A stretch of DNA of 48,941 bases from Folioceros fuciformis (taxonomy: Eukaryota): positions 1 to 48,941 of the forward strand of contig JBNGIO010006268.1 in assembly GCA_049999805.1 (NCBI GenBank), read 5' to 3'. Made by a program: the position numbers and the translations under genes. This document shows positions 2,013 through 43,640 of the stretch, piece by piece. Position 1 is the first letter of the stretch, and every line of letters begins with the position of its first letter. A model generated the notes under the pieces. That model had not been told where the DNA came from, made no database searches, and was given only the letters and a program-made list of their open reading frames with translations.

Positions 2013-3280
2013 ATGGATTTGGTAGCAGAGATTGAGAAGCAGAGCGAGCTTGCGGTGGATCTGTACAAGCGGCTCGCAGAGAAGCACCCCGGCACTAATG
2101 TGGCCATCTCTCCCATCAGCATAGCCGTGGCTCTGTCCATGGTGGCAGCTGGAGCTCGGGGCCCTACCCTCCAGCAGTTTCACTCTAGCCTGAAGCTACC
2201 AGCCCGAGATCTGTTGCATGAGTTTGCATCCCAAGTGAAAGCTCTCATTCTTGTGGATGCCGGCGGCAGTGGCGGGCCTTCCTTGGTGGTTGCCAACAGT
2301 GTGTGGGTGGAGAAGGGGTTGGACTTGAAGCCACCCTTTGTGCAGATCCTCAAGGAGAAGTACCTCACTGAAGCACGGCAGTCAGACTTCCTTCACCAGG
2401 TACGTCGTCACAAGGGGTCCCTCTTTCATGGCAGATCGTGTACCCTGTGTTTCCGGGATGGCGCATTGCATCGAGCTACCTGTCCCGGTGAAGTGTGCAG
2501 GCAGAGGATGCAAGGAGGGAGGTGAATAACTGGGCAGAGGAGCACACCCAAGGAAAGATCAAGGACTTGCTGCCACCGGGAAGTGTGGACAGCGACACTC
2601 GCTTGGTGCTGGCCAATGCCATCTACTTCAAGGGGAGATGGGAGCATCCGTTCACTCATTCCGACACCAAGGTGGAAACCTTCTACTTGCTGGATGGGAA
2701 AACGGTAACAGTTCCCATGATGACCAGCAATAACGAGCAGTACATCGGCCACTTTCCTAACCACGGATACAAAGCTCTTCGGCTGCCATATGCCCAAGGC
2801 AGTGATAACAGGTCCTTTTCCATGTACTTCCTGTTGCCTGACGATAGGATGGGGCTGCCTGACTTGGAGCAAAAGCTGGACCTAGCAGCTCTGCAGGAAA
2901 GCTTGCGCCAGCTGAGGAAAGGCCCTGTTTCCGAGTTCAAGCTTCCACGATTCAATATCTCCTCCCAGTTCAACGTCCCTGATGTGCTCAAAAGTCTGGG
3001 GTTGGTGCTTCCTTTCACTGATCAGGCAGACTTCTCTGACCTGGTGGACGCCCCTGTAACCCTCTCGGACGTGTTCCACAAGGCTTTTGTACAGGTAAAC
3101 GAGGAAGGAACAGAGGCTTCTGCAGCCACAGGTGCCACCATGATGCGTAGATCGCTGCGTATACCTCCAGAGCCTCAAAGCTTTGTTGCAGATCATCCGT
3201 TCCTTTTCTTCATCAAGGAAGACCGCACTGGCCTTGTGTTGTTTGTAGGGAAGGTGACACATCCCTTGTTGGATGCCTAG
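2013..3280 (+). CDS. Serpin (plant serpin-Z type), 2 exons: 2013-2399, 2501-3280
   Basis: Serpin motifs NVAISPISI, VNNWAEEHTQGKIKDLL, LVLANAIYFKGRW, hinge VNEEGTEASAAT and signature FVADHPFLFFI. The phase-0 GT-AG intron 2400-2500 (cag|gtacgt...gtgcag|) joins the two ORFs in frame. Confidence 0.95.
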
Positions 3281-3788: not shown

Positions 3789-3910
3789 CCTCCAACTGCA
3801 ATGCTTACCTTGCAATAAGCATAACAAGGTTGAGGGGAAGCTTGAACGCTACTTACTCCAACTGCAATGCTTACCTTGCAATAAGCATAAAAAGGTTGAA
3901 GCGAAGCTTT
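3789..3910. repeat. Short tandem duplication (~65 bp x2)
   Basis: CTCCAACTGCAATGCTTACCTTGCAATAAGCATAA.AAGGTTGA occurs twice. Confidence 0.8.
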
Positions 3911-4491
3911 AATGCTACTGATTGCCAATGAGATTCTTTATAGTGAAAGCTACTGAGATTCTTTATAGTAAAAATATGTGGAGATAAATACTCATTGAAA
4001 GACGGCCTCTTCCAACAGTCTTGACTTGCAATGCAATTTGGATCCATTAGAGAAAGAACTCAACATATAAATACTTGTCAAAAGACATCATTGTCGAAGA
4101 CTTATGTAGATCAACAAGACCTCCGCAGATAAATACTTATTTGTTGAAAGACATGGTCGCAAAGACCTTGATAGATAAATACTTCAAATGTTACTGACTT
4201 GCAACAAAACTTGCAACAATATATCATCGAAGATATCTTTCATAAATACTTCTAAGAACGACCTTTTTTCACAAAGGACTAAGACATGAAAGAAGCTATG
4301 GACTTCAGCAGCTCACGATCCTCTAGTCTTTCTAGTCTTAGCCTAGATTTTCCCATGTTGGCTTTTCCAAGGATCCAGCAAGAGATACTACAGGAAGACA
4401 GTGTACATCTCTGCACACTTCTTTCATGGAAATATCTCAGGGCATGCAACCCTTTTTACAATGATGTATCATGGTCATTTTACCCACTCTT

Positions 4492-5253
4492 CTATCGCGT
4501 GCCACGTCTCCGATTGCCCCTCTCAATCCTCGGCGTGCTCGGGACTCGACAGCTCTTGCTGAGGAACGGATAGAGCCATTCAATACACCGGGAGAACTGA
4601 CCAGTCTTCTGTGCTCCTGTGAGCACGATGCTCCCACTGTGATACAGAGTAGCTGTCAACCACTTGTCGACGTACACCTGCTGACAGAGGCCGGGAAACA
4701 GTTCCGGCTCAAAGTTGAGACTCCCAAGCTGCCCATCGTCGTTCTTAACAGGCTTGGGTCCTCCCTGCTGGCTTGTGAGCAAATCACAGAGCAGGTTAAG
4801 ATCCAGACTGTACGGCAGTTTCAGCTTGCCTACCCGATTGGTGACGCGGAACCCGCACACCCTCGCATCCGCGTACCCGATTTCCTGAACGAGCCGCACA
4901 ATCTCTGCCCCTGCACGCCGTGCAGAATCCTCGTCCGCAGCTCCCATGAAAGTGACTTTCCCCGTCTTGAACACGAATGCAGTCAGGCCCAGCGTCTTCT
5001 TCCAGTTCAGCTTGCAGCGGATGAAGTTCCCCTTCACCTGGTACTCCGCGTTGGGCAGCGACGCGCTCAATATCACCAAGTCCACAGGGATGCCAAGGCT
5101 CAGCGTTCCACACACGTTAACTTCCTTGATCTCCTGAACCAGGATCGCAGCCGCTGGCAGCTGGCAAGCTTCGGCCTTGACCTTGTCGGCGTTGGCGTCG
5201 GCGCCGCCGACCATCAGGTCACTGTCGTCCTGCTTTGCGAACGGGCTAGACAT
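4492..5253 (-). CDS. Divergent TATA-binding-protein-like factor, single exon, 253 aa
   Basis: Both TBP repeats are recognisable: VNVCGTLSLGIPVDL, NAEYQ, TAFVFKTGKVTFMGA, FRVTNRVG, FEPELFPGL, TLYHSGSIVLTGA, LYPFL. The ORF is intact from the ATG at 5253; the ORF-track start at 5400 is a GTG. Confidence 0.85.
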   Translation of the reverse strand: MSSPFAKQDDSDLMVGGADANADKVKAEACQLPAAAILVQEIKEVNVCGTLSLGIPVDLVILSASLPNAEYQVKGNFIRCKLNWKKTLGLTAFVFKTGKVTFMGAADEDSARRAGAEIVRLVQEIGYADARVCGFRVTNRVGKLKLPYSLDLNLLCDLLTSQQGGPKPVKNDDGQLGSLNFEPELFPGLCQQVYVDKWLTATLYHSGSIVLTGAQKTGQFSRCIEWLYPFLSKSCRVPSTPRIERGNRRRGTR

Positions 5254-5774
5254 GTTCAGACCTGCCTCAAATCCCGCTTGTATCGAGAAAAGGACGCCAG
5301 GCACGATGGAGATCACAAAAAGGATGCGAGACGCGAGGACGCTCTCAGGGGACAGGAGCACCGTCGTCACGACAGAGAAAGGGGTAAAACGACAGGCCAC
5401 TGACTGAGACTCAGTAGCCTCCTTGCTGCATCTTAACCTAATCTAATACACAAGAAGGGCGGGAGAGAGCTGGGTTTGAATTTTGCGACCTCGGGCGCGA
5501 GTTTTGAGGTTGTCGCCTCCACGGTCGGGGTGGGCTGCTTGTCGATGTCGACATTCCCACATGCGTGGATCCATCACGAGGCCTGGGAACTTGGGAAGCT
5601 CGCATGTATGCGACATACAAACATACATACATGGAATGCAGCACACCGCACACAGCGCTCAGAGCTCTGGAGCGTACTTCCCCACGGCGCTTGTGACAAC
5701 TACAGGGACGTCCTTGCATTTCGTCTCACAGCTAAAGTGCCAACCATTCCACTCGAGGGCTAAGATGCAGGTCC

Positions 5775-7610
5775 CTGGAGCTTTGGCCGTTGGTACTGCA
5801 TCAAGAACGTTCCGGTGTCCAAGGAATCTCGTTGTCGCATCCTGTTGTGGCTCTGGGTCAGCTGCTCGTCCCTAAACGTCCCTTGTTCTTGCGTTGCTTC
5901 AGGTGGCCATGGATTCCACCATACCGTTGGCACAGGAAACAGTCAATCCATATGCAATACTGGGATCCACAGCCCTCTCGGCGTGAGCGACAGATACGTT
6001 CTGCAGGTTTGTCAAATCCCACTTTGCACAGTTAGAAACACTGTTGGTTTGTGACTGTCAATCGGCTGAACAGTTGAACAATTAGTTTTTTTTTGTTGGT
6101 CTCTGTGGCGCGGATCTGGTACAGATGCAAGGCTCTGGAGACTTGTCAAGAGCAGGTCACGTGGTGACGTTTTTACAGGCACAACGACCAGGTGAAGCAA
6201 CCTCCACATCTTCGACATAGACATTGCCTACGATAGAAGGATTGGGGAGGTCTTCAATCGTAGACATCGCTGTGGGGGAGTGAAGCCATAGCCTTCGAAG
6301 ATAACTGGAATTGCAAGCCGATCCTGCTCTACTGTGCTCGAGTGAGACATGCACTTGCTACTGGTGAGGACTTCCAGGCGCACATCTACTGTACAGCACG
6401 GCTTGTGAAGACTCTGCCGTGCATTCAGGCCTGACGCTGGCAAGTGACTTACAGACCTGTGTGCTGGGAGATGGCTTCTTGCACCATAGTTCCAACTTCA
6501 GCGTGGCTTCAGGTATGTGGCTACGTGTTGTGGACGTCAGTATATGAGCGTCGTACAGAAACTCGGGGACCACAACATCGTGTGATGCTTGATTATGGTA
6601 TTCGTCAAGCCTTTTCTGTTGATGGGTTTTGTGTTGGGTGATGTTGAGCACGTGATCGGGACTGACTGTGCACCATCTTACTGCTTGGTTTCGTCTTGTA
6701 TGATGTTCAGCAAGCAGATCGGGACTGACCGTGCACGGCCAATTTGCTGCTTTTAGGTGATCTCCCAGGGGTGTGCAACCTTGGAATGGAGGGACTGGAT
6801 TCTGTGTCTGGCTTCACGAAGGCCTGGTTAAGCATATCGGGGTCAGGGTCGTGGTCGCCTAGAATTTCTTGCAGGTGTGCCTCTTTTTGTTCGCTGCGCT
6901 TGTCCCACGTTTCACACCGGAAACCGTTTGTCGTAAACATCCCAAGTCTACGGGATCATGTGGACCGAGTTATAGTCTGTAAGATTTCACTGGACAGTCA
7001 TCTGTTGGCGTCGAAGAACATCCTCGACTCGGGAAGCATCACTGGACTGAGTAATCTTTTTTCCACGCAGGCTATGCTATAATTATACGAAATTCTTGTC
7101 TCGTCTACAAGTGTGTATACCATAGGTACGTCCACTGGCCACAGAAGCTGCAGACGCCTGTCTACCTTTAGCATTGTGTGGCATGGTTGTCCAGAGAAGG
7201 CCTTATTTCTCACGGCTGGACTTGAATCTGGAACAGGGCATTGAGGTGGGCACGAATCGGTCATTTTGCACCATATTTGCTAACAGCTAGATGGGATTGA
7301 TTGGATGGTGATAATCGGTGGAGGGGAAATGCGGCAGCTGTATTGCCTCAGACAAGTGAGGCTTCCTGCACATGCCCTGCTCAAGGGAAGAGACGCTTTG
7401 TCCAACTGGCTCGTAATTCCATCCTCAAATCACCTGCGCCACAATGAAGTTCATTCATGGAGCTAACAGCTTAAAGTGACTTACGAACGACAGTGGCCAT
7501 GCAGATGAACGCGGAGATCAGTCATATTTTGCCAACATCGGCTTCCTCCATGTTCTTCGAACGTCTGATGTGGCAGGGCGCCATTGGTGGAAGTGAGACT
7601 ACTAACGACT
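5775..7610 (+). pseudogene. Decayed inverted genomic duplicate of the 5' half of the lipase gene at 9935-13983
   Basis: Collinear blocks match the lipase reverse complement: GGAGCTTTGGCCGTTG (~5777 vs ~13890); TTGTCAAGAGCAGG.CACGTGGTGACGTTTTTACAGG (~6143 vs ~13550); GCATATCGGG...TTTCT.GCAGGTGTGCC (~6830-6880 vs ~12900); GCTTCCTGCACATGCCCTGCTCAA (~7361 vs ~12200); GTGACTTACGAA (~7476 vs ~12085). Stops and frameshifts are present. The 3' end is approximate. Confidence 0.85.
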
Positions 7611-8310: not shown

Positions 8311-8876
8311 AAGCATCCCTGGACAACCAATATTTATAGGCTCAGCCATCTCTTCCTCGAAATTATCTTTGAGGCAGCTCGCGCTCGTCTCTACTCTTGC
8401 TCAAGTGAAGAAGCAAGTTCATCGCTTTTTGCTCTATTGCGCATTCAAAATTTAAATTGCACCAATATCTCTCTTGTCTAGTATGATGAGATTCGCGTAG
8501 ACCTAGTCCAGCCCTTGGTTGTAGCTCTTTCTAAGCTTGAAGCCACGGGGTGTGTGTCAATGACTTAGAGAACTACTTTCATCACTACCCAAGCATCATG
8601 GACAATCAATATTTATAGGCTCAGCCATCTCTTCCTCGAAATTTGTTCATCAATGAGGTAGGTCGCGTTCGTCTCTACTCTTGCTCAAGTGAAGTGGCAA
8701 GTTCATCACTTTTTGCTCTATTGCACATTCAAAATTTTTAAATTGTACCAACATCGCTCTTGTCTATGATGAGGATTCGCATAGACCTAGTCCAGCCCTT
8801 GGTTGTAGCTCTTTCTAAGCTTGAAGCCACGGGGTGTGTGTTAATGACTTCGAGAAGTACTCTCATCACTACCCAA
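8311..8876. repeat. Direct tandem duplication, ~280-bp unit x2
   Basis: 8311-8590 and 8591-8876 share CAATATTTATAGGCTCAGCCATCTCTTCCTCGAAATT...TAGACCTAGTCCAGCCCTTGGTTGTAGCTCTTTCTAAGCTTGAAGCCACGGGGTGTGTG...CATCACTACCCAA. Confidence 0.9.
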
Positions 8877-9934: not shown

Positions 9935-12900
9935 TCAAACAATCTCTGAACTGTTTGAGATGTTAAGAAACCTGCTGGAACCGTTATCCCCTCTGAATTC
10001 CACATCTGCAACAAGTTGATTCAAGGCTTGTTGGCACCTGCTCACAAAGGATCACGGGTAACACCTTAGCAACGACATGGCAATGAAGACTTGAAGCGAC
10101 TGGCAAAGCCATTACATCCAACGCGACCAAAGTCCGTCCCCGTACTTACTTCCATGGCAGATGGTCAAGGAACATGGATGGCGACACCACAATGTCCCTG
10201 AAGTGCGAGCAGTCCCTGAGAAGAGCCCTGTGCCGGTGCTTGTGACATTCACTATGCAAAGTGCGTCTCCTGTTTGCCTTCAGATCGCAGATGACATGTA
10301 TAATTAGTCCAGGTATAAACATCTCTGCAGGCCACAGTTTCTCCACTGCTGCTGCCATGCAAGTATTATCCATAGATCCAAACAACTGTGGCTCTTCAGA
10401 AATCTGCAACTCTACGTGGCTGCAACTCTCCTCTGGGACTGGACTTTCTGCCCCACTGTATTTCCTACATGTGCTGAGAAGCCCCTCTGCATCCTCACCA
10501 TGGCAACTTTCACCCCCTGCACGCATACCACAGACTTCTCCATCAGCATCTTCAGACATGCAAACACTGGTCCTTCCACCAACAAAATCTGATCCAGTAC
10601 ATGCCGTTATGTCCTCTGCCCCGGGTAGACATGCAGAGCCTTCAGCTGATTCAACCAACGTTTCCAATTCCTTGGTTGGACTGGCATCTAAGGATCCATT
10701 ACACATGAGCTGAGAGCTACTAGCCGGCATGAGCTGATAGCTACTTGGCACATGTATGGGTTTGGAACCACTCTTAGGGATTGGACGTTTTGCTTCGCAC
10801 TCCGTCATGTGCATAATACATCGGCATGTATGAGAACAGAGACAACGACCACCTTTCAATGAGTTGATAAATCGCCGTCGAAAGTACTGAGGGTTCTCGT
10901 CCTTGGATGTAGATGAAGAGTTGTGAACTGGAGGACAGCTTTGTTCGGATTCCAAAACTTTTTGCGAGCCCCAACACCGCCAAAGATTCATGACCACAGC
11001 AGAATCAGCATGCACATCTTTTAACTTGACAAGTGCTTTCTCCCGCAACTTCATGATAGATGACAGAGACAGCCGAGAGGAGAACTCATCATTGTAGACT
11101 ATGCTGCAGACATCAGCAAAGAGATTTGTTCTCAAGGACGTGTGGCAAGTGTATCAGTGACAAATAGAACACCTTCACCCCCATAATGGGTACCTGGTTA
11201 TGAAGCTGGAACACGCTTTGGCTGTGGCAGCATCTAGACATGGTAGTAACCCATAAGCATACACATGTAACGAAGGGAACCGATCATAGAGCTGCAGTGC
11301 CCAGCCATATCAGGGGTCAGAATAAGTTGAGCACAGGCCGTATACAAGCAACTTCAGTTGGCTCCAAGCATCACATCGACCGTACCCTTAATGCTGTCAA
11401 GGAAGCGATAGCACCCCCCAATGAATGACCAACAAATCGGAGAGAATATCCATCACACGGTCCTCCTGGAGCAAGAAGTGATGACAGCCACCCTGGTTCA
11501 CTTTGAAGAAACTGTTGATCACCTGTTTGGTACACAAAAGTGTGAAAAGTAAGCGATCCACGCTTCTTTAACTGTACAGAGTGTGATAGACGACAAGGTC
11601 AATCCCACTCATACTGTATCTTGGAATGGTGGCTTCACTGCCATCAGCGCCCACTAAGGTTGTGTCATCCTCTTCCAGACGGCCATCCAGCTGCATTGCA
11701 AGTTCTCTTGCTGCTGCTACCACTCCGATGTGGCCAAAATGAGGACTTGTGCAGGCTATCTCCTGTTTCATGGTGTCAGGGATTTGCTGGCTTCTGCAAC
11801 ATCAAAATACACAATGAAGTCATCACTAGCCATCACGGCGGAAGAAGAACATGTAACTCTAGCCTTTTGAAAACTACTATGAGCTGTGTAAACGTTCATC
11901 AAATCTTACTTTAGCAGTCCTTGTAGATCGGAATCTGACAACACACATTCCTTTCCCAGGCCATCCGTGATAAGATCTTCAGGAGTCTCGGTTCCACGTA
12001 CAGCTACCACCACAGTTTGCAAATCATGAAGGGCTGCAACAAAATACACTGCCTCCCTGTTCATCTGCACACTGCCTTTCGTAAGTCACTGATAACCAGT
12101 AGCTCCATCAATCAGGTGCATCGTGGAGCACATGATTTGAACACTGAATTGCCAGCAAGTTGAACAGAGTACCTGACAGACTCGTCCTTTGAGCAGGGCA
12201 TGTGCAGGAAGCTTCACATGTCTGAGGAAAGCTGCTGCATGCCCCCGCCACCAATTATCACCATCCAATGATGGCCTCCTGATACCAGAAGTCATACAAC
12301 GTGAGCAAGTTCATCTCAACATCCTTGCAAACACCACAGCATATTCAGTCCAGCAAACCTGTTACGATTCCAAGCCGTAAAAAGACCTTGTCTGTACAAC
12401 CATGCACACAGAAATGTGGACCGGTGTCGCCCAACATCCAGCAGCGGTCCCTGTTTGTACACATACAAAAGTTATGAAAACTTTGCACAAGAAGACTGCA
12501 TGTGCAAGTTCTCCGATGCCAACTAGCTGCCTCAGTCTGAAAAAATCGAACAGACTAATCCTTTTATTTTTCTGGGGACCAATCCATGTAAACATGTGAG
12601 CAAGTTCACAGAAAACAAAATACCGTGTACGCTGCCACTGCGTACGGGTGCAGCGACGTAGCTTCACGCAGAAGATCACGTGATGCCTCTGGATGCTCCT
12701 CAAACACCGGTGGTTTTGGCATGGGCTCGTGAAGGAGAGCAACTCCTGAACACAGGAATTTGTTGTTAAAGAGCAGAGCAAGTCCAGACAGTGGCACACA
12801 ACACCTAGCATTCGTGAACAGCTTACGACATAACTATGCATAACTAGCTCTGGTTAAAAGGTGGGTCAGCAACAGAAAGGGCACACCTGCGAGAAACTCC

Positions 12901-13983
12901 AGGTGACCAGGACCTTCAGCCCGATATGCAACCAGTTCACCAAGAAGTGAAGCTACAGAATCCACCTCCTCCTTCTTAAGCACATCCCTGGGGATTACCG
13001 AGAAGCAGTAAATTGGTACACAGGCAGCCCCAATCCAATCAACGTAACGCAAGACAAAACCAATATGAGCATCTGCCACTCACATGTACTGCGACCTCCC
13101 AAGGCAGCAAAGTACTTCTCTGATCCCATAATCAAACATCTCACGATAATGTGCCCGCCAGGCTTCAGCCCGCCGCTCATACAATGACCTCCATGTGAGA
13201 ACATCTGATCCAGCACAACACTGAACCACAGCCTGTATCCATGCTGCAGCTGGAACGATTGTAAAGGGAACATGAAGCCATCTTCCAGCATGCCTTGCTC
13301 CACCTGTAAGTCACTAGCCTCAGCAACCTGACTTGACCGTAGAAGTTCACAAGACAACATAGAAGCCCTAACCAGTTGCAAGTGCTACACTCCAGGACAT
13401 CAAGACCAGTGTGCATGTCAAGCTTCCAGAGTTCCTACATCAACCCACCAGAACAATGTCTACGATAGAAGTCCGTCCCAAATGATGAACTCCTCCACAA
13501 TACAAACGTGATGTTTGCAGCAGCTGCCACCTGTAAAAACGTCACCACGTGGCCTGCTCTTGACAACCAGAGCCAGCATCTGTACCAAGTCTGCACAACG
13601 GAGACCAACACAAGAATCAGGAAGTGCCGTCGAGGTCACAAATTAGCAACGTTTCCAGACGTGGAAAATGACAAAGCTGCAGACTCTACCCGTCGCTTAT
13701 GACGAGTGGCAGAGGTTCCCAATGGCTCTCTTTCCTCTGCCAACATGGTAGAAGCCGTGGCCACCTGAACGAATGCAATAACCCATATCCACAACGTGCG
13801 GGAAGTTGATCCCAAAGCTACAAGACTTGATGCAACAAAGATATCTCTTGGACACCCGAATCTTCTCGATGCCGCAGCAACGGCCAAAGCTCCTGCTAGC
13901 AGAGCCCCATTCAACACAGCAAGCAGGATGACAACAAGTCGAATATTTCGCACCCTGCATTGTTCAAAGATCCCCGACTCCAT
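9935..13983 (-). CDS. Lipase class 3 / sn1-diacylglycerol-lipase-like protein with N-terminal TM helices, multi-exon
   Basis: Hydrophobic N-terminus (MESGIFEQCRVRNIRLVVILLAVLNG). Motifs VVAVRGTETPEDLITD (~11970-12020), HFGHIGVVAAAREL, catalytic elbow FVGHSLGG (~11414-11437), IVYNDEFSSRLS and C-terminal MFLDHLPW. The last exon 10038-9935 ends in TGA. Internal exon borders were not all resolved. Confidence 0.88.
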
Positions 13984-14752
13984 CCCTGCCAAAGTCTTGC
14001 AATCATCACCTTCTTCAAAACGATCGTGTTTCACATTATCACGTCCCCTCCCACGACATATCAAACCTCTCTCGAGAACCCATGCGATGACCCAGCCAGC
14101 CCAAAGAAGCACACATTTCCAACCTTTGACTCCTTTTCCCACGCATGCCACATAGTGTCTTCTGCAACCTCTTGCAAACCGGGCAACCAACTTGAGCCCC
14201 GATCTCGCAGCATAGTGGAGCATGTACAACCACGACCATGCTCATCCGCTATACGGACAGCGTCGAGAACAATATAGCCAAGGAGGCAACGTCTCTGTCC
14301 AAACCTAGCCCCATAATTCCCAAATTCAGAACCACCCAAAATTTGATACCCCCCTTCCTGGATCAGGAGATTCGATCGGCATGACCCACAAACAGCTCGG
14401 ATCTAACGGCTTCCTCCAAGTGCTTCTGAAACGAATTCCGAGGGGCCAAGGTCTTACTCTCCAAGCTACGTCAATGCACCACTACCTCACCGCCGCGCAC
14501 AACAAGCTCTTGCAGATGTACATAACAGCGGAAGAATTGCAGGCTGTGTCAGGAGGTCAAGAACAGCAGTCTAATGAAACTAGCAGACTATTTGTTGACT
14601 GTGGTGGACGCCAATTTCCCCAGCCCCCGGGATCCATCCTTCCGGCTTTTGTGGCCGACATGCTGGATGCGGCGGCCGGGCACGACGTCTGACGGGCTTG
14701 GGTGACGAAGCTGCGGATTCTGCTTTTGGCGTAGCAGCCGGTGCACGTAGCT

Positions 14753-17260
14753 ATGGAGGTTGCAGAATGGAACATGCTTCAGAATCGCTTCTACCGAAAG
14801 CACGAGATCCACGCCATGCGATGGCAGGATGTGGATCTGAGCAGGCACAAGGTGGCGTGCGCCAGGTTCGGGGGTCCCATCGCCATGATCAGAGACGAGT
14901 CCAAAATGGTGCAGCTGAGATCGGAGTCGGTGCGGCCCAAGCTGCTAATCTTCTCCGCCTGCGGGAAACTGCTCTCCAGCTTCGTGTGGGAGAGGCCCGG
15001 GGGCAGGCTCATCTCCATCGGATGGACGGACGAGGAAATTCTGCTGTGCGTGGTGCAGGACGGGACCATCTTCCAGTATAACGTCCACGGGGAGCTCTTG
15101 GAGCAGACCCTGTCGCTTGGGGAGGATTGCTGGGGCGAGGGGGTCTCGGAGTGCGTCATCTGGGGGAGTGGGCTGGTCTGCTTGACGGAAGCCAACAATC
15201 TGTTCTGCATTCCGGATCTGAAGCAACCTCAGGCAGTGAGGCTCGCAGATCCCGGGCTGGAAGACCCTCCGCACTGCATGGCGGTCCTGGAGCCGCAGTA
15301 TACTGTGTCGGGGCACGTGGAGGTTTTGCTGGCAGTGGGGGCAACGGTCTTGCTGGTGGATGCTGATACCGTGCAGGACCAGATGCTGAACATCGGTCCT
15401 TTGCAGAGGATGGTGGTGTCTGTGGGGGGGAGCTTTTTGGCCTGTTTCACACACGATGGCCGGTTGCTTGTTGTGTCGTCTGATTTGTCTAAGACGTTGG
15501 TGGATTACAACACGCAGTCAGCTTTGCCTCCGGAGCAGTTAGTCTGGTGTGGGTCGGACAGTGTGGTGCTATACTGGGAAGAGCAGCTGTTGATGGTTGG
15601 GCCTGATGGGGAGATTCGCTACCCGTATGACGAGCCCATCTTCCTCATTCCGGAATGTGATGGTGTGAGAGTTCTGTCAAATTCTGCTACCGAGTTTTTG
15701 CAGCGGGTTCCGGATTCCACTGTTTCCATCTTTGGGTTTGGAAGCACGTCTCCTGCAGCTATGTTGTATGATGCCTTGGACCACTATGATAAGAGGAGTG
15801 CTAAGGCCGATGAGAACATCCGGCTCATTCAGTCTTCGCTGCATGAGGCTGTGGAGTCATGCATAGATGCTGCGGGCCATGAGTTTGATCCTGCTACGCA
15901 GAAGACCTTGATGCGGGCTGCTTCTCATGGCTTGGCTTTCTGCACCACCTTCCCGCAAAACCGGTTTCGGGAGATGTGCAAAACGCTGAGGGTTCTTAAC
16001 GCTGTGCGTAGTTTTGATGTGGGGATTCCACTCAGCATTCAGCAGTTCAAGGTTCTTACCGCACCTGTTTTGGTTGCCAGGCTGGTGAACGCCAGAATGC
16101 ACTTGCTGGCACTCCGGATCTCAGAGTTTTTGGGGTTGAGCCAGGAGACAGTGCTGGTGCACTGGGCTTGCTCTAAGATTGCTGCTGCCACTGACGTCCC
16201 AGACTCCGTGGTTTTGCATTTGCTTGTTGAGAAGCTCAGTATTTGTGCCGGGACTTCGTTTGCTGCAGTGGCTGCTCATGCTCATCGCAGCGGTCGACAG
16301 AAGCTAGCAGCACTTCTGCTGGATTACGAACCCAGATCGTCTGAGCAGGTGCCTCTTTTGACTAGCATGGGGGAGGAGGAAAGGGCATTGGTGAAGGCCA
16401 TCGATAGCGGGGACACTGATCTAGTGTATTTTGCCATCTTCTACCTTCTGCGGCAACGCTCGGCTGCCGAGTTTATGAAGACTATACACGCCAAGCCCCT
16501 CTCTCGGGCGCTCTTCATCATCTATGCAAAGCAGAATGACCATGAGCTGTTAAAGAAGTTCTTCCAAGCCACTGGACAACCACAGGGGGTAGCTCTGGTA
16601 TTGTGGAGAGAATCTTGGGAACAATCTAGGACGTCTGTTGTGGGTGCAGAAGCACAGCTCCCTGTCACCCGGTTGAGAATGATTGAGCAAGCGCACGGTT
16701 TGTATTCACAGCTCAAGGATCACTCCTATGAAGCCAGTGTCACGGATGATTATCTGAGACTGCTGAAGGTGCAACTGGAGCTCGAGGCTGCTACTGGGCA
16801 GGCTATTTTTGTTGATTCCAGTGTCAGTGACACCATAAAGACATGTATAATGCTGGGCAACCATCGAGCAGCCCAGAAAATTAGAACGGACTTCAAGCTT
16901 TCTGATAAGCGTTTCTGGTGGCTCAAGGTTTTTGCCTTAGCAGCCCTCAGGGACTGGGCAGCACTTGAGAAGTTCTCTACCGAGAAAAAGTCGCCTATTG
17001 GATACATGCCATTCGTTGAGGCGTGCTTAGAGGAGGGGGAGAATGCCGAAGCATTGAAGTATGTATCCAGGGTTTCCGATGCCGAGCAGAGAGCTGAGGC
17101 ATATGAACGTCTAGGTATGGCAAAAGAAGCGGCTGAGGCAGCTGCACAAGCAAAGGATGGACCATTGGGCCGCCTCAAGCTACCAGGGTTTGGAAGCAAC
17201 ACTGCCGCTGGAGCGCTTATTGACACTCTGAGAGACCGACTGACACTGCAGGCACAATAG
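14753..17260 (+). CDS. VPS16: Vacuolar protein sorting 16 (VACUOLELESS1), HOPS/CORVET subunit, single exon
   Basis: One uninterrupted ORF of 835 aa from the ATG at 14753. Motifs VACARFGGPIAMIRD, LIPECDGVRVLS, ALVKAIDSGDTDLVY, DKRFWWLKVFALA, KKSPIGYMPFVEAC. Confidence 0.95.
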   Translation: MEVAEWNMLQNRFYRKHEIHAMRWQDVDLSRHKVACARFGGPIAMIRDESKMVQLRSESVRPKLLIFSACGKLLSSFVWERPGGRLISIGWTDEEILLCVVQDGTIFQYNVHGELLEQTLSLGEDCWGEGVSECVIWGSGLVCLTEANNLFCIPDLKQPQAVRLADPGLEDPPHCMAVLEPQYTVSGHVEVLLAVGATVLLVDADTVQDQMLNIGPLQRMVVSVGGSFLACFTHDGRLLVVSSDLSKTLVDYNTQSALPPEQLVWCGSDSVVLYWEEQLLMVGPDGEIRYPYDEPIFLIPECDGVRVLSNSATEFLQRVPDSTVSIFGFGSTSPAAMLYDALDHYDKRSAKADENIRLIQSSLHEAVESCIDAAGHEFDPATQKTLMRAASHGLAFCTTFPQNRFREMCKTLRVLNAVRSFDVGIPLSIQQFKVLTAPVLVARLVNARMHLLALRISEFLGLSQETVLVHWACSKIAAATDVPDSVVLHLLVEKLSICAGTSFAAVAAHAHRSGRQKLAALLLDYEPRSSEQVPLLTSMGEEERALVKAIDSGDTDLVYFAIFYLLRQRSAAEFMKTIHAKPLSRALFIIYAKQNDHELLKKFFQATGQPQGVALVLWRESWEQSRTSVVGAEAQLPVTRLRMIEQAHGLYSQLKDHSYEASVTDDYLRLLKVQLELEAATGQAIFVDSSVSDTIKTCIMLGNHRAAQKIRTDFKLSDKRFWWLKVFALAALRDWAALEKFSTEKKSPIGYMPFVEACLEEGENAEALKYVSRVSDAEQRAEAYERLGMAKEAAEAAAQAKDGPLGRLKLPGFGSNTAAGALIDTLRDRLTLQAQ

Positions 17261-18592: not shown

Positions 18593-19756
18593 GATTGCTT
18601 GGGGAGGGGCTTTGGTTGACAGTGCGATGGCTGCAATCTCCGGAGGGTTTGCTTGCTGTGTGAAAAACTGTCGACGACATTAGGCAATGGTTTCGGTGGC
18701 AGATCTTGGCTGGATTGCAATGCCAGGCCCGCGTCTCTGCGTCCTGGACTTTAAACAGGGGTGGGCATTGCTAGCTGTCACCCTGGTAGGCCGATGGAGC
18801 GCACTAAAGACGGATTTCCGTCATGGCAACTTGACATTTGACCCAAGGGCATCCTTCCGATTCAGGAACCATCTCAAGTACCGATCTTCTTATAAATGTG
18901 TGTCCATAAAGTTCTTATTATTGTAGGCGTTGCCTTTGGAGTAAACCATTCCTAGGGATGTTGTTTACAATCATGGATCCTTCGTTTGATTCCCCACTCA
19001 GAACACCACAGTCTAACATCGTTGGGATTTCTGAGCAAAGGAAGGACATTTTTCACTTACGGTCTTATCCCATGAGTTGCAAGGCTACCTCTTTCGCGGC
19101 ACAATCTCTTGTCGTGCAATTCTGCCACAGGTATGGGTTTTTCTTCCAGCTTGTCCCAGGTGTGTTGCGAATGTGGCACCAACTTTATGTTTTAGTAAAC
19201 CATATTAATGTTCCGGGGCTCAGCCGTCCGAGAGCTAATTGGCTCCATTTCCCAAAGTTATCCATCACGATGGCAAATACTTCTCCGTTGCACGTGCAGA
19301 TGCCCAAAAAATTAACTCCCTTCTTCTCTGGCATGCCGAAGAATCTCTGTCCTCTTTTTTCACAATACACACCTTGCTACTGACTACTCTGGTGGCCAAA
19401 ACCAAGCAAGAAGAAGAAAAAAAGCCACACTTGCGACTACCTACCCTACCCTACCCCTCACCGCTCCCCTATCAATCCTAAACTCCTCTATTTCGCTAAA
19501 CCTATCCCGACCCACTCCTCTCTGCGCTGGCCCTTTAGGGTTAAACACCTGAACCCTAAACACTTCCCCTATTTTTTTCTCTCCAAACCTATGCCACACT
19601 ACTCTCTTCTTCCTTCGTTAAAAAATAACAATAAAAAATACTTTTTGCTCCAGTGTGTTGTTGGGTGTAATGTCTTTTTGTGATTGGATCACATCAGACC
19701 GCCAAAGAGAACAGCCTGAAACAAGGAATTTCTTTTCTTATGCCCTAGGAGTTTAG

Positions 19757-19833
19757 TGCAATGCTTCCTTTGGTTTCTGCAATGTCTCCTTTGGTTTCTG
19801 CAATGTCTCCTTTGGTTTCTGCAATGTCTCCTT
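19757..19833. repeat. 21-bp tandem repeat, ~3.6 copies
   Basis: TGCAATGTCTCCTTTGGTTTC is repeated (reads PKETLQK on the minus strand). Confidence 0.85.
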
Positions 19834-20562
19834 AGGTGAAATCACGAAAAAGGGCAGCTTAAAAATCGGAATTCTCCAGTATAAGCTTTCCTGTGTAAGC
19901 TCCTTACACAAGAACTTTCTTTTCCTATGTACTCCTTGGTGCAATGTTCCCTTTCTTTTCCTGTGTTCCTTTCCTTGAATCGCTGAGGAGGACCAGGGAG
20001 GACAATCTAGAATCAGGAATCCAGGAGTCACATGCACCCAGATCCACCACAAAAAAAAAACTTCAAATAAGGGGACATTGAGTGTTCCTGGTTGACATGC
20101 CATACCCTCCAACGAGGTAATGCAGGCCGTCAGTCCACTCGAAACAACAAACAGAACTGTTGTTGGGATGTGCCAAAAATGTTTAGCCCATCGCTTGGGC
20201 CCCATGCTTTTCCCGTGACCCAAAAGGCTAGTAAGAGTAAATGCTATTCTGGTATTACATGAGATTAGACTACAAGCCTGCGGATGCAAAGATCAGGATG
20301 CTCGAAGTTAAAAAAATTCCAACCAAACTACTCTCGTACGACCCACAGGGCTGGAAAGAGTCAATGGCTAATTTGGGTCTAACAATAATCCAGACTAGGG
20401 GCCTGCGGATTTCAAGCTCGGCATACTACAGTCATGGAATTCTTATCAACCTGCCTGGCAGCAGATGTTCTGCAAAGTGTTAAGATAAAAAATAAAAAAA
20501 TAGTAGCCCTGAAATACTGGTGCAAAGTCGCCGCAAATGACTCTGCACATCAAAGATGCCAC

Positions 20563-23500
20563 CTAAAACCATGGATGCCATGTCGGGTCCATCATGCAGA
20601 GGCTTCGGGGCTGCAATGCTGCCTCTACAAGTTCAGTCACCCCCCTCTGGACGGATTGCAGTGGCTCTGGAGAATCTTCGTCCTGCACACAGGAACGAAG
20701 GCCTTCAGAAAATCACAGACATCAGTGGGAGCTACAGCACATGAGCTAAGAGAAACGAACCTCTTCAGGAAAAGACTGGGGTGCAATAGCTTTCACCCGA
20801 TTCATCACCATGTCTACGTTGGTTGTAACTTTCTGCTTCAGCTCACCCGTAGCTATGCCTCCTGCAGTAGGAGCTGCAGGCATACCAGGAGGTCTTCTCC
20901 ATGACCACGATATGAGCTCATCTCTAAAAAACATTCCTAGCTGATGCTGCACATGCTGGTTCTGTACACCCAAGCGTTGAAGATCGATGAGTTGGAACTG
21001 TAGTCTCTTCGAAAGAAGAATACACAATAACTTGGAATTCAAAAAGATGTTCACCTGAGGGGCTACAATGGACTGTGCAGCAGCACACATGGAGGAGACG
21101 AACAGACCTTCTACACCAAAGGGTGTAAAAAACGTCTGCAGGTTCCTTGTCAGTCTAAACGGGACGGAATCTGTAAACTCCACCATTCCATTCATGTCAT
21201 AAGCTGCAAACACCAGACAGGAGTCAGTGCCAGTGATAACACTAAGTCAGTAACCATATTACACATTTGCAACCCAATCACATCTCACCGGGATGGAAAT
21301 CATTCTGAAATACTTTCCCCGTGTTCTTCGCGAACAGAATCTTATTAGGAGATCGCCCCCCAATTTGCAGCATATATGACATGAACCCTGAAAGTGCCAG
21401 TTGAACAGCAAACTGCTTTTTAAATGTCCAAAGATGATTGGATGATGGCAGCGTCTTATACATATACTGGGAAAACACATTTTCGCTGACGAAGTTGTTT
21501 GTGATCTCGTTGTAAGTACGAAGGCGTAAATCAACGAACATCTCATTTGACAGCTGCCCTGTAATAGCCTGGTTCAGCCTCTCCTTGAAATGTGTTATAG
21601 GTGCATCAGCCTCCCGACCATAACGGGCACAGTTGATTTCATAAACCTCACCAAAGGTACTAAACATTAAATCATCCTCCACCATTCGGACCTTTAAAAG
21701 AGAAAGCAAGGTGACTGTGAGCAAATACTAGTAATAAACCAAACAGATCTCTGCACTTTGCAAGCAGGAAAACACATACGTCAACCACATCACCACTACA
21801 TAGCATGCATACCTGCGGCCACACCGGGATTATGACAGGAGCATTAAATGCCAGGTGCCGACGTCTCGACTCTTTGTACTTGTCAAGCAACCTATTCAGC
21901 ACTCTGAACAACTGCACCATGCGCTCGTCACTCCGAGCACTGGGTGTCAAAGATGTCTGCACCAGAAAATGCTTCTGGGAGCCATCACTACCAATCATGG
22001 TCAGGCGTCGGTGGCTACTACCATGACGGCGTACGATTGGAACGTCAGCACCAATTCGATCTAATTTCACAGCATGATCCGGGGAGTGGTCATTAAAATA
22101 CTGCCCTGGAACTTCTATATCTACAACATGGAATTCTCGTAACTGCCGGCTCTCTTCTTCTAATTTTAGCACAGCCGGGAGTCGATCTTCAACATTGCTC
22201 TGAAGCACACCTTTCCAATGCTTCAACCTATTAGTCAATTCTGCCAACGTTGCTGGGAACGTTCCAGCACTCTCAGGGTCCAAGTCCCTCTCAAAATCTC
22301 TTTTGTATTCGGTTACAAACTCGACATGCTTATTGACAGTGTCAGTCGAAAAGCAGGCTCTGCAAACGCCTGCCAGTTCCTTTTTCAGAGACTGTGGCAC
22401 TTCAGCTGTGGTTGCTGTTGGATACTTGTAGCAGCGATGTAACAGTGCATACACCACAGCAAGCAATCTCTCTTCAGGCAGAGGAACAAATCTTGCTCCA
22501 ATTTCTGTGAGCATCAGCTGCACCACCATCCATCTCAGAACATGGGATGACAAAACGACAACATTTCTAAGTGCCCAAATTGAGTAATAGAATCTCAGCA
22601 TCATCATTGCATCATGAAAGCTTGGATAAAAGCATCAAAGAGAAGTTGTACCTCCAATTCAGTTGCAAGGTTAGCATGCTTTCCTCTCAAAGCTTCCATT
22701 ATGTCCTTGGCTGCTTCAAAAGCGGAAGCTGCTGAAGGCCATGCTGCAACATTCCTCCTTGCAGGCAGTTGAGGATCACCTTGCCCACTACTTGCAGGTT
22801 GACCCGTTTCAGAACCTGCAGCTGAAACTCCTTCAATGTTAGGACCCCTCTCGCCTTCTTGACCAGCACTGCTGGCGTTTTCTTGTCCTGTATTTTGAGT
22901 CTGAGCCACATTCCCTGTTTGTGCAGCCGTGTTTGCAATACCCAGTTGATTCGTTGCAGCAGTGTCTACTGCCAATGCACTGCTGCTGGAAACAGATGTC
23001 ATAGGCCCACTGTCAGAGGAATTTGCAGGAGGGGCCCCAGGTGCATTTGCCATGGCTTGCACACGGGCCTGAGCCTGAGCCTGGGCCTGGGCCTGCGCCT
23101 GGGCCTGCACCTGGGCCTGCGCCTGGGCCTGGGTCTGCACCTGGGTCTGCACCTGGGCCTGCCCCTGGGCCTGCACCTGGGCCTGTGCCTGCGCCTGCGC
23201 CTGGGCCTGGGCCTGCGCTTGGGCCTGCGCCTGGGCCTGGGCCTGGGACTGGGCCTGGGCCTGCTTGGCACTCTCAGTCTTGGACGCAATATCACGCCGT
23301 TCCAGCAGGTAAGTCCGCAGCCAGTAGTATAAAGCCTGCAAAGACATCGCAGTTGACAAAAATTGTCATGCTAATTATGTGGTCAGTACTTCTTGGCATC
23401 TCCTGCTCATCGAACCAGCAGTTGACAACCTTACAGCAAGCAGCTAGTGCTAACCCACCTGAGGATACACTGTTGCTAGTCTCGCCAGAACTGTCCTGGA

Positions 23501-39274: not shown

Positions 39275-41059
39275 TTACATGCTTGAAGCTTGCATATTAG
39301 CCCGATGAATCATGTTGTGGAGACTTACATCAAACGCATCTGCGAACTCAGAAAGCTTTGCACCTGGCTGGGCATACAGCAGGCGAGGCATAATTTCCAG
39401 CAGAATGGTTTTCCTCATCTGTTCCACTTTAGACTCTGGCACCTGTTGGAGTCTGGACACGACATCCACAGCCCCCGTCCGCACATCTTCGTGAGGAATA
39501 TATACTGAGTAGGAATGATAATCCTGTGGGAGGTGCCACGGATATTGAGCATAAGCAGAAACGGGATCAAAAAGCACGGGGATGCAGCCAGCGATAAGGG
39601 AGTCAAAGATAGACCGCCTGGTCAGGCTGTCTCCACTTGGTTGCATACAGTAGTGCGAGTTGAGAAAGAGCTTCATTGTGGACGCAGGCTTAAGACAGAG
39701 ATGCTTGTGGCACCTCAATATCCGACACAGACTCACATTCCTCTTCGCTTCACACTGTTGGATAAGCCGAGTACGGATGCTGTCGGGGTCATCAGGCCTT
39801 GGCATCCCCGCGAAGCTGACCAAACTGTCTCTGGTGCTGTGAAGTGCAAACTGCTGCCACATCCTGATGTCGTCGTCTGAGGAAGGGTGAAAATAGGTTG
39901 GATAGGGCACTCCGATATCGTTTTCATCCCAGGGGTTCCTTTCAATCAAGAGCCTTGTTAGGTTGCTCATCTGAGGAAACTTGAGCAAGGAGCTGCCCCA
40001 GGACGTACTCCGGTTGTCCCATCGTCTGAGATCCCAACTGATTGTTCCGACCAGGAGGACATGGTCTCTCCCACCTTTCCGATGCCACCATGTCTGCGCC
40101 TCCAGCCAGCGGACCAGATCATGAGACAGCTGATCCCGCAGTTCAGCAGTGGCGTTGGAAGCAAAGTTCCAATGCAAAACATCAATCCCTGCGTAGTAGG
40201 GGATGTAGAACAAAGAAGCAGAAGCTGGATCGGACGTCAGGCATCTGTAATGCAGAAGCTTAGCATGAAACAGGATCTCCAGAATGAACTGAAAAGTCTC
40301 ATACCATCTCCCAGCAGGTTGCAAAGCTTCGTCATGCGTCGTCACCTTCCCCATTCCAGAGTTCGAGAAAAACTCGCAAAGACTGTGCCAGGGCACGATC
40401 GTGCTACAACTGGCAGCTAAATCCGCATTAAACCTGCTCGGCAGATCATACACATATACGCGCCTCCCATCACAAGATTCGGCACCGGTATAACCTTTCA
40501 TAACTGTATCTCCCGAAATGCGGAGCTTGTCCACATTTACCATTACCTCTGATCGCCTGCCAGGTCTGCTTGTCTGAAGCTTCTCATCTCTGACATTAGA
40601 GCTTTTCTCGTCCACCGGCCCGCTGCTTCCATGCTCCGCACTCTGCCTTCCCTCTGCCACTGATCCAGTACTGCCAATGGCACTCGAGGTCTCCTCCTCT
40701 GTCCCCTCCGTTCCAGAGGAAATCAAAACATTCACATCTCCAATCTCGTCAGCGGAATCATGTCCCTGCACGCTTCCCTCTTGCCAAGAATGCGGAGTAG
40801 TCTGCTCTACAGAACCTGCATTCACATCGCGCGCGAGACTGTTCCCGTCATTGTGAACGGCATCCGAGTCTACTCGACGCGCAGCATTCGTGTCACGCGC
40901 ATCGAACCACGAATAACACGACTCCCCGCACGGCACCGAGAGCTGCGCAATCATCAAGACGCTCCAACCGCAATATACTATTACCAGAAACATGGATGGG
41001 ACGAGCAGCATTCGCACAAGGCGAACCGGGATCGAAGAGTGACGCTTCATGAGCCCCAT
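39275..41059 (-). CDS. GT47 exostosin-family glycosyltransferase, MUR3/KATAMARI1-like (xyloglucan side-chain clade), single exon
   Basis: Type II TM anchor, Ser-rich stem, CDGRRVYVYDLPSRFN, GGRDHVLLVGTISWD, PYPTYFHP, YCMQPSGDSLTRRSIFDSLIAGCIPVLF, SAYAQYPWHLP. First ATG at 41059; the ORF-track start is a TTG. Confidence 0.92.
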   Translation of the reverse strand: MGLMKRHSSIPVRLVRMLLVPSMFLVIVYCGWSVLMIAQLSVPCGESCYSWFDARDTNAARRVDSDAVHNDGNSLARDVNAGSVEQTTPHSWQEGSVQGHDSADEIGDVNVLISSGTEGTEEETSSAIGSTGSVAEGRQSAEHGSSGPVDEKSSNVRDEKLQTSRPGRRSEVMVNVDKLRISGDTVMKGYTGAESCDGRRVYVYDLPSRFNADLAASCSTIVPWHSLCEFFSNSGMGKVTTHDEALQPAGRWYETFQFILEILFHAKLLHYRCLTSDPASASLFYIPYYAGIDVLHWNFASNATAELRDQLSHDLVRWLEAQTWWHRKGGRDHVLLVGTISWDLRRWDNRSTSWGSSLLKFPQMSNLTRLLIERNPWDENDIGVPYPTYFHPSSDDDIRMWQQFALHSTRDSLVSFAGMPRPDDPDSIRTRLIQQCEAKRNVSLCRILRCHKHLCLKPASTMKLFLNSHYCMQPSGDSLTRRSIFDSLIAGCIPVLFDPVSAYAQYPWHLPQDYHSYSVYIPHEDVRTGAVDVVSRLQQVPESKVEQMRKTILLEIMPRLLYAQPGAKLSEFADAFDVSLHNMIHRANMQASSM

Positions 41060-41658: not shown

Positions 41659-42105
41659 TCAATATGGGGAAGGAGAGAAATCCCAAGCATCAGACTCCGT
41701 AGTGTTCACAATTGTGCTGTTATTAACATTGGGAATGAAATCCGAATCCTCATATGCTGAAGGAGAATCCATGGACAGGGGCTCCTCATAGTAAGAAGCA
41801 TAGGGGGCCTCAACATCGAATGTGCTGTTATCCACGTATGGAGCCGAGGTGTCATTGAACTCCTCCATCACCGAGATTGCTGGATCATAGACTGCAACTG
41901 TGTGGGCCCGGCCTGTGACATGCACAACCATAATTCATTCATACCTAAAGACACACTCATCTAAACACAAATCTAAGAACACCCAACAAAACCAAACTAA
42001 TTTCTTACCAGGCCTACTGGAAGGCATGCCCCTTCCAGCAATCAGAATCAAGATAGAACCATTGAGCATCATCAGAAGTAATATAATGAAGATTAACTTG
42101 TTCAT
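41659..42105 (-). CDS. Small secreted acidic protein / putative peptide precursor (116 aa); exons 42105-42009 and 41912-41659
   Basis: Signal peptide MNKLIFIILLLMMLNGSILILIAG. The donor CCTG|gtaaga and acceptor tcacag|GC give an in-frame phase-1 splice (97+254 = 351 nt) into an acidic, Ser/Pro/Tyr-rich ORF ending ESDAWDFSPSPY*. Confidence 0.65.
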
Positions 42106-42949
42106 CGTGTCTGACTTGGGCTCTGACACACACCACAAGTGAATGAAATTAATGAGAAGATAGAACACAAATCTTCATTGTTCGTTCTTCTTCAAATGAT
42201 CAATCTCCTTAAGAATGTTCTTAACTGCTTCGTGGTAATTATGCGGTGAACTTCTCTAACAAACCAGAATATTTTTCTTCTCGCAAAAGTCTCACACGAA
42301 AGAAAGACAATGAACACCTTGGCTGCAACTTCTTATATATTGTAAAGGATTCCAAGTATGAAAGTCTACTCACTTTTAGTTGGAAGTATCCAAGTAAGAA
42401 ATGTTAGTTCTTGCATAAGAAGTAAGTATTTTTTAACTATAGATTGATTAGTAAACTGCTTTACTATTATGGGGTGACATGTATTCAATTTTATCTTTTC
42501 CTTATGCAATATTTGTTCCTTATCCTCCACATCTCCATCTTCTTATATATGTAGAAGATTCTAAATAAAAATATGTATTTAATTCTAGTTCTTCTAATAG
42601 TAATATTTATTTATTAATTACTATAAATAATATGATATGTTATTTTTAGATGTCTCTACTCCACAAACATAAGTGGTAGCCACTATAGGTAAATCCTCTA
42701 AGATTCCTTTGTTTCTAAGCCCATTCGAGTTCATCTTTGGTCTTGTATGAAAAAGGGTCAATTTTAGTTTTTTAATTACCATAGATTTAATTGATGGCAT
42801 GAAGATGGACATTTTTTGGGTCATACTTGGCTTCCATGTTGGTAGATGAACAACATAAATTATATTATATTTAGATAAGATATATATATATATATTATTT
42901 AACCTAAAAAATAAGAAAAAAGAAATAGAAAAAGTAGCCATTTAGGAAC

Positions 42950-43640
42950 AACGTTGGTTTGAGTACCAAGCAAGTAAGCTCCATGTAGAGGCATGTTTAG
43001 CAGAGCAGGTTACTAAGAGCATGAGCTCCATGCAGAGGCATGTTTAGCAGAGCAGGTTACTAAGAGCATGAGAAGCATGCAGCCCTAGGAAAAAGTATGT
43101 GGTAGTGAATAATAGCTTAAGGCTTAAGTAAGTGCTTAAGTAAGTAGTTGCTAAGTTAGTGATTTGAGCTTGTGTATAAAAGGGGACCTAACCAAGGGCT
43201 AAGGGAAGTTCAGTACAGTGGAGTTGAGATCAGTATCTCCTCAAAGCCTTGAGTTGAGATCAGTATCTCCTCAAAGCCTTGAGAGCATTGGGTGCTTGGG
43301 CTCAAAGCCCNNNNNNNNNNGGGTGCTTGGGCTCAAAGCCTAATATCTCCTCAAAGCCTTGAGAGCACTAGGTGCTTGGGCTCAAAGCCTTGAGAGCACT
43401 CGGTGCTTGGGCTATGCCTTGATGCTTGGGCTATGCCTTGAGAGCATGTGTTGCTTGGGCTGTGAGAGTACATGAAAGGTGTTGTGAAGGAGCTGTGGGG
43501 GAGGCTAGAGAAGGGAGAGCTAAACTCCTAGCTTAGGCAAAGATGGGGAGTTCTCTCTAGCCCTCCAGCTCTGTAGTTTTAAAAAACTGACCCCTTCTAA
43601 CTACGTGGTTCTGCCCCACCCCCGTTGAAGGGGGTGTTAC
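42950..43640. mobile_element. Repeat-rich LTR-like remnant (possible solo LTR)
   Basis: Internal tandem repeats (~47 bp x2 at ~42977-43071; 30 bp x2 at 43221-43280; GGTGCTTGGGCT arrays), TATAAAAGGG at ~43175, and an end GGGGGTGTTAC resembling an LTR 3' terminus. No TSD or coding remnant was confirmed, and the patch contains an N-gap. Confidence 0.4.

Follow-up and report, generated by a model that had tools for sequence, protein, structure and literature searches.

A highly divergent, intronless TBP-like gene in a genome contig of Folioceros fuciformis

The genome contig JBNGIO010006268.1 of Folioceros fuciformis (assembly GCA_049999805.1), analysed over its full length of 48,941 nt and referred to here as the window, encodes a member of the TBP family that is neither a canonical TBP nor a TLF orthologue, nor demonstrably a giant-virus TBP. 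The underlying open reading frame (ORF) is a real gene, or one that was real until recently. It is best explained as a lineage-restricted, fast-evolved TBP paralogue, a putative TBP-related factor of this plant lineage, that would have kept minor-groove insertion and TFIIB docking and lost the surfaces on the TFIIA and TAF side, a reading to which we give a probability a little short of even. A possible function as an alternative core-promoter factor is inferred from a single sequence of a single genome, and the gene deserves attention as a candidate but does not amount to an established new system.

Family membership and predicted fold

The gene and the parts of its product are arranged as follows.

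4492..5253, minus strand: TBP-like ORF, 253 codons plus TAG (4492-4494), single exon, first in-frame ATG at 5253; Pfam TBP E 1.2e-21
5128..5253, minus strand: N-terminal extension, residues 1-42, acidic (pI 4.2), without family match; model confidence low to moderate
4879..5127, minus strand: TBP lobe 1, residues 43-125, with F77 and F95; one-residue insertions and radical replacements in the stirrup/S3 region
4555..4857, minus strand: TBP lobe 2, residues 133-233, with N139, V141, F186, Y204, V210 and T212; better conserved than lobe 1
4723..4770, minus strand: 16-residue insertion, residues 162-177, in loop H1'-S2' directly before the C-terminal stirrup; block pLDDT 67, which is low
4687..4710, minus strand: C-terminal stirrup EPELFPGL, residues 182-189, same as in canonical TBP
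4495..4554, minus strand: C-terminal extension, residues 234-253, Arg-rich by composition (7 K/R of 20, pI 12)

With the Pfam TBP family (PF00352; cut-off 22.9 bits) the protein scores 76.8 bits (E 1.2e-21), in two stretches that correspond to the two tandem repeats. The preliminary description of this DNA, which had reported an intact single-exon ORF of 253 residues with both TBP repeats, is thereby confirmed. The NCBIfam TBP models match as well, but under their equivalog cut-offs, and PHROGs gave no match. A phmmer search against the PDB returned 35 distinct TBP chains with yeast TBP as the best match (E 1.2e-18, residues 46-233 aligned), whereas the archaeal TBPs in the same search score more weakly than the eukaryotic ones (E 2e-9 to 1e-5). 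Judged by these sequence matches, the protein is eukaryote-type.

Modelling with AlphaFold2, for which a 102-row alignment served as input, gave a mean pLDDT of 86.9 and a pTM of 0.78, with the core blocks at 90-98 and with weak parts in the first approximately 40 residues, the insert at 162-178 and the last approximately 15 residues. The best Foldseek match of the model is Arabidopsis TBP (1qn3_A; TM (target) 0.92, rmsd 1.8 Å, 26% identity), and the comparison with solved eukaryotic TBPs gives TM values of 0.85-0.92 and rmsd values of 1.8-2.8 Å. The predicted structure is the two-lobed, pseudo-symmetric alpha/beta saddle of TBP. Five motifs can be located on it, namely EYQVKGNF (residues 70-77), FVFKTG (93-98), the insert QQGGPKPVKNDDGQLG (162-177), EPELFPGL (182-189) and TLYHSG (202-207).

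Integrity of the gene and its genomic setting

The TBP-like ORF shows strong coding-type periodicity, with GC1/GC2/GC3 values of 0.59/0.43/0.72, and lies between flanks with a GC content of 0.42 (3') and 0.55 (5'). Its GC3 is higher than that of all 10 neighbouring coding stretches measured (0.44-0.64), which counts against a host paralogue and, along with the intronless structure, in favour of acquisition from elsewhere. In codon usage the ORF correlates only weakly with its neighbours taken together (0.37), which likewise counts against the host-paralogue reading, although short host exons give values as low (0.32-0.46). An antisense ORF of 310 codons (4471-5403, plus strand) spans the whole gene; it belongs to no Pfam family, and its probable explanation is the shadow frame that a GC3-rich gene usually casts. 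Logan contigs from two DNA runs, which are possibly the assembly's own source and thus not independent, cover the ORF with identical sequence and as deeply as they cover its flanks. In a putative RNA run under the same species label, the type of which was guessed, no contig falls on the TBP-like ORF; contigs match 5777-5841 and 6143-6179 only, with the identity expected of the paralogous DUF7358 gene described below. No RNA data set is listed as containing the ORF.

The gene lies among the following neighbours.

2013-3280: serpin gene, flanking the TBP-like ORF
About 10146-14223, minus strand: DUF7358 gene
14753-17260, plus strand: VPS16/VCL1 (VACUOLELESS1) gene, an uninterrupted ORF of 835 codons
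Within the window: Tra1/TRRAP (Tra1/FAT) gene
39275-41059 and 43805-45637, minus strand: two tandem intronless exostosin/GT47 genes, Pfam E about 1e-79 each

The best matches of the VPS16/VCL1 protein are liverwort and moss proteins with at most 68% identity, and every named match is from a land plant. Together with the serpin, the Tra1/FAT gene and the two GT47 genes, these sequence matches support the setting in a plant genome, as had been proposed. Plant VPS16 genes are typically multi-exon, and the intronless copy here may represent a retrogene or an intron loss in the lineage. Several further features of the window were noted. An AT-rich stretch separates the two GT47 genes (GC 0.31 at 42001-43000). 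By the kinase-like end of the Tra1/TRRAP gene, an exon-like ORF (22604-23347, minus strand) contains an extended run of Gln-Ala dipeptides (QAQAQA...), which interrupts a giant gene that is conserved elsewhere with low-complexity sequence. Tandem or direct repeats occur at 1008-1293, 3790-3921, 8320-8876 and 19736-19837, with units of 46 nt (five), 66 nt (two), about 284 nt (two) and 21 nt (four), the 21-nt family falling within an ORF that encodes repeated KPKETLQ.

The segment 5777-7910 (plus strand) is a partial copy of the DUF7358 gene (13893-11651, minus strand), old and in inverted orientation, to which it is 68-76% identical in patches. Its frames are broken and decayed, and it lies directly upstream of the TBP-like ORF in head-to-head orientation. 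A duplicated bidirectional promoter was considered and rejected, since the similarity to the DUF7358 locus begins at 5777, within the first exon, and excludes the promoter. The TBP-like ORF thus sits between the serpin gene and a decayed host copy, at a contig depth equal to that of the flanks. No viral or transposon genes adjoin it, its surroundings consisting of plant genes and decayed host sequence.

The decay of this duplicate beside an intact TBP-like ORF demonstrates that unconstrained DNA at the locus does deteriorate. Furthermore, drift to 28% identity without constraint would be expected to fill 762 nt with stops and frameshifts, so that selection probably held the frame open. We infer that the gene was under selection during most of its history, its present use being a separate question. 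On this point the paralogue reading has to be weighed against a relic that was once functional, whether here or in a donor lineage, and is now silent and intact only for lack of time, which we consider unlikely, if worth serious attention. Consistent with such a relic, no orthologue or family member showing continuing constraint was found in the libraries, several DNA-contact residues are replaced (see below), and the gene lies at the edge of the old inverted segmental duplication, so that the region has been rearranged. Against it stand the 253 codons without stop or frameshift, the persisting codon-position periodicity, the two lobes modelled with a pLDDT above 95, and the state of the adjoining host-gene copy, which has decayed where the TBP-like ORF has not.

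Sequence divergence, relatives and origin

As the canonical plant TBP reference, the first 200 residues of P0002 were used, a Penstemon record that contains TBP twice. The protein is identical to this reference at 51 of 184 aligned positions (27.7%), whereas other plant TBP rows are 90-100% identical to it, and the strong departure from canonical plant TBP claimed earlier is evident from these values. Conservation was evaluated in an alignment of 128 rows, comprising the protein itself and 127 of the 150 matches listed, the other 23 being dropped because fewer than 160 residues aligned to the plant core. Among the 62 near-universal columns, defined as those that do not vary among plant TBPs and are conserved to at least 90% among TBPs with 60-88% identity, the consensus residue is kept in 35, compared to 27.7% identity overall. 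This concentration of conservation on family-critical columns points to selection on the family's own positions. At none of the nine land-plant-diagnostic columns is the plant residue present, a result that counts against a host paralogue and for horizontal transfer.

Three of the four DNA-kinking Phe residues are kept (F77, F95 and F186) and the fourth is a Tyr (Y204). The four columns read Phe in 108, 116, 122 and 124 of the 128 rows, respectively, and Tyr is found at the fourth in four rows, this protein included. The preliminary description had correctly assigned the kept Phe residues in FVFKTG and ELFPG and the Tyr in TLYHSG, but its "shifted or replaced" Phe is F77, which both the HMMER and the MAFFT alignments place opposite the first intercalating Phe once a one-residue insertion is allowed for. 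Three rather than two are thus retained. The role of the intercalating Phe residues is described in PMC3142196. In lobe 2, the groove contacts N139, V141, V210 and T212 are retained as well. The C-terminal stirrup, reported as retained, is indeed identical to that of canonical TBP over residues 182-189 and includes both stirrup Glu residues, E182 and E184, which are predicted to contact TFIIB. For Arabidopsis TBP2, a review names E144 and E146 (its numbering) in the stirrup as the main TFIIB contacts (PMC10005294).

Other surfaces have changed considerably. The columns of yeast R98, R105, R196 and K211 carry G, N, Q and S, those of yeast V71, V122 and T124 carry C, T and M, and the helix-H2 columns of yeast R137, K138 and K145 carry A, E and E. 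In yeast TBP, these residues serve in DNA contact or lie on the TFIIA, TAF1, NC2 and Mot1 sides. In addition, the N-lobe stirrup region contains two one-residue insertions, and the net charge of the core is +5 compared to +14 in plant TBP. With these contact positions replaced in the sequence, DNA binding may be weak or lost.

The insertion claimed before the stirrup of repeat 2 is present, the spacing from L152 to E182 being 29 residues compared to a modal 13, although this loop is insertion-prone and measures at least 22 residues in 20 of the 128 rows. The Arg-rich C-terminal tail is likewise found, with seven Arg in the last 20 residues.

Searches for relatives retrieved the TBP family at large. 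When 1.84 billion representative proteins were scanned with HMMER, 932 matched at E<=0.001, 69 at 1e-10 and none at 1e-30, and the highest identity among the matches listed is at most 36%. Canonical TBPs from a red alga, from animals and from plants head the list, the score of the first match being inflated by the duplicated TBP in P0002. A word-indexed search of 5.8 billion proteins produced 1858 candidates, none at E<=0.001, and the same search with alignment A1 yielded four matches, all without names. No orthologue or close paralogue was found in either protein library, which counts against the host-paralogue reading. The protein itself is absent from both libraries too, however, which indicates that the lineage is poorly covered and that close relatives are possibly missing as well. 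Within the window, tblastn found no second TBP-like copy. The preliminary reading as a plant TBP-related factor stands as regards a genuine two-lobed TBP-family protein that is intronless as read, lies far outside the near-invariant range of plant TBPs and has an intact TFIIB-type stirrup; the orthologue search that it proposed found none in the libraries. In agreement with its statement that land plants are usually described with canonical TBPs only, full-text literature searches turned up no paper on a plant TBP-related factor, although relevant entries may exist in the paralogue tables of PMC7221094 or among the ORFs listed in PMC4083422.

Turning to viral and metagenomic sequences, neither the protein alone nor alignment A1 retrieved a relative from IMG/VR, while a scan with alignment A2 found six distant loci (22-25% identity). 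A JGI metagenome scan gave six loci, all remote or partial, three of which (L004-L006) match over 37-43 residues only. In an ESM-Atlas feature search, the three nearest clusters are TBP clusters mostly labelled viral (0.96, 0.95 and 0.95), which serves as a lead only.

The placement of the protein differs between trees. In a quick tree of 128 rows it groups with the metagenome proteins P0029 and P0036 (SH-aLRT 88). In a careful tree of 58 selected rows it instead joins the long branch P0124 (92/60), and the group with P0029 and P0036 is not recovered. A quick tree of 66 rows, made up of these 58 with six IMG/VR TBPs and two metagenome TBPs added, again places it with P0029 and P0036 (87) and with none of the six viral rows. 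The latter two proteins form a pair of their own (SH-aLRT 99-100) that lies far from all other TBPs. Long-branch warnings accompanied every tree run and the protein falls in no starred clade, an instability that counts against the host-paralogue reading; most tree rows are unlabelled, and few of the 30 library matches looked up carry names. In AU tests, a clade of the protein with six land-plant TBPs (lnL 1.81 above the free tree, p-AU 0.523) and a clade with P0029 and P0036 (lnL 3.20 above the free tree, p-AU 0.579) are both not rejected, and the phylogeny is thus uninformative on origin. Nesting within host TBPs is therefore compatible with the test but, with 0/9 diagnostic columns, without positive support. 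The choice between retroposition and a viral or other donor, which the preliminary description had left to a phylogeny, is accordingly retained on both sides, except that known giant-virus TBPs prove more distant than cellular ones.

Under a horizontal origin, the gene would be the solitary remnant of an integrated giant virus or other mobile element, or of some unknown eukaryote, either domesticated or not yet decayed, and its divergence would stem from the donor. We regard such an acquisition as improbable. Besides the GC3, the diagnostic columns and the viral-labelled Atlas clusters, it draws on the grouping with P0029 and P0036 in two of three trees. P0036 is encoded at 929-1732 of metagenome contig L001 (Ga0302305_1031989), which has 58.5% GC, and its ORF lies there between two tightly packed, intron-free ORFs without Pfam match, a context in line with transfer. 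NCLDV-derived DNA is moreover reported from a moss and a lycophyte in PMC4083422, but the same paper describes the moss regions as low-GC clusters of at least two ORFs. In contrast, the gene studied here is adjoined by no viral or mobile-element gene and is flanked by a serpin gene and a decayed host copy. Viral TBPs are also farther from it than cellular ones (6-16% identity among the BFVD matches listed, and the low values of the IMG/VR loci), and the IMG/VR scans with the protein and alignment A1 were empty. Its identity to P0029 and P0036 (30-36% over parts) is no higher than that to canonical TBPs, and the land-plant clade is likewise not rejected. The loop insert and basic tail, considered as synapomorphies with P0029 and P0036, are weakened in this role, as both recur in other divergent TBPs.

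The gene is intronless, as a processed retrocopy would be, but neither a poly(A) tract nor direct repeats on its two sides came to light. A young dead retrocopy of plant TBP is excluded by the divergence itself, because a young copy would still be nearly identical to plant TBP.

Possible function and comparison with known systems

As a fast-evolved paralogue, the protein would still insert its saddle into the DNA minor groove, the three kinking Phe residues and the Tyr as well as the lobe-2 Asn, Val and Thr contacts being intact. Its sequence preference or affinity has probably changed, given the replaced lobe-1 contacts, the loss of four basic positions and the lower core charge. Docking of TFIIB, or of a factor like it, could proceed through the unchanged C-terminal stirrup. 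By contrast, the N-lobe stirrup, towards TFIIA, and the basic helix-H2 face, towards TAF1, NC2 and Mot1, are rewritten, and the protein would therefore act outside TFIID-type regulation.

The same pattern could be read as that of a decoy or negative regulator, which would have kept the TFIIB stirrup, lost promoter binding and the TFIIA and TAF contacts, and would titrate TFIIB-family factors. The identical stirrup, the changes at the four basic DNA-side positions and the helix-H2 face, and the reduced charge are in keeping with this, and a precedent by analogy is offered by metazoan TLF, which according to PMC3142196 negatively modulates transcription by sequestering TFIIA. However, a pure decoy would not need three of the four Phe residues, the Tyr and all lobe-2 groove contacts, and we judge this role very unlikely.

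In animals, transcription in the germline and the embryo is marked by the use of specialised TBP paralogues, and the animal TRF2/TBPL2 systems have so far been regarded as a metazoan innovation. It is conceivable, though on present evidence rather doubtful, that a land-plant lineage evolved or captured its own TFIIB-competent, TFIID/TFIIA-independent TBP-related factor for a specialised programme, for example in reproductive cells, in parallel to these animal systems. Core-promoter recognition in plants has so far been described with near-identical canonical TBPs only. If the gene studied here is functional, alternative initiation factors would have arisen independently in plants, and one small intronless gene would provide a tractable handle on promoters that escape TFIID-type control. 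If captured, it would be a rare single-gene trace of a donor lineage otherwise known from two metagenome proteins; if silent, it is an ordinary orphan relic.

With the canonical plant TBPs of the Arabidopsis TBP1/TBP2 type, the protein shares the Pfam family, the two-lobed saddle, EPELFPGL and three of the four intercalating Phe residues. Its identity to the plant reference is 27.7%, whereas the identity of plant TBPs among themselves is about 90% or higher; the two Arabidopsis TBPs differ by about 10% (PMC10005294). The protein further differs in the one-residue insertions of the N-lobe stirrup, the 16-residue insert before the C-terminal stirrup, the loss of several basic residues, and its acidic N-terminal and Arg-rich C-terminal extensions, the latter at a place where plant TBP ends within a few residues. 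Plant TBP genes typically contain introns, while the gene described here is intronless as read.

The TBPs of giant viruses (Nucleocytoviricota) are similarly intronless and highly divergent in sequence on a TBP fold, often with insertions and extensions, and Foldseek retrieved 73 BFVD matches at E<=0.001. Their identity to the protein, 6-16% among the 50 BFVD matches listed and 22-25% for the six IMG/VR loci, is nevertheless below that of cellular TBPs, and there is neither tree affinity to the six IMG/VR rows nor a viral gene near the locus. P0029 and P0036 resemble the protein in having a basic C-terminal tail, the motif LP[YW]xLxL and a lengthened loop H1'-S2' in the corresponding position, but their identity to it is only 30% over 188 columns and 36% over 127 columns, respectively.

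Passages of PMC3142196 and PMC10005294 describe the TBP-related factors TRF1, TLF/TRF2 and TBP2/TRF3 in animals only. Metazoan TLF/TBPL1/TRF2 would be an analogue in kind, as a diverged TBP-core paralogue beside canonical TBP that has altered DNA-contact residues and could serve alternative initiation. With about 40% identity to the TBP core, TLF is described from metazoans only and still binds TFIIA and TFIIB (PMC3142196), whereas the present protein is 28% identical to plant TBP and is encoded in a plant genome. It is not grouped with a TBPL1-like cluster (P0071/P0068/P0056/P0088, a label that is tentative and derives from one rotifer protein) in any of the three trees, and the TBPL1 cluster of the Atlas ranks only 26th for it. 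Finally, the protein keeps the Phe residues that TRF2 is said to have lost (PMC10005294), and it is the TFIIA-side stirrup that is rewritten in its sequence.
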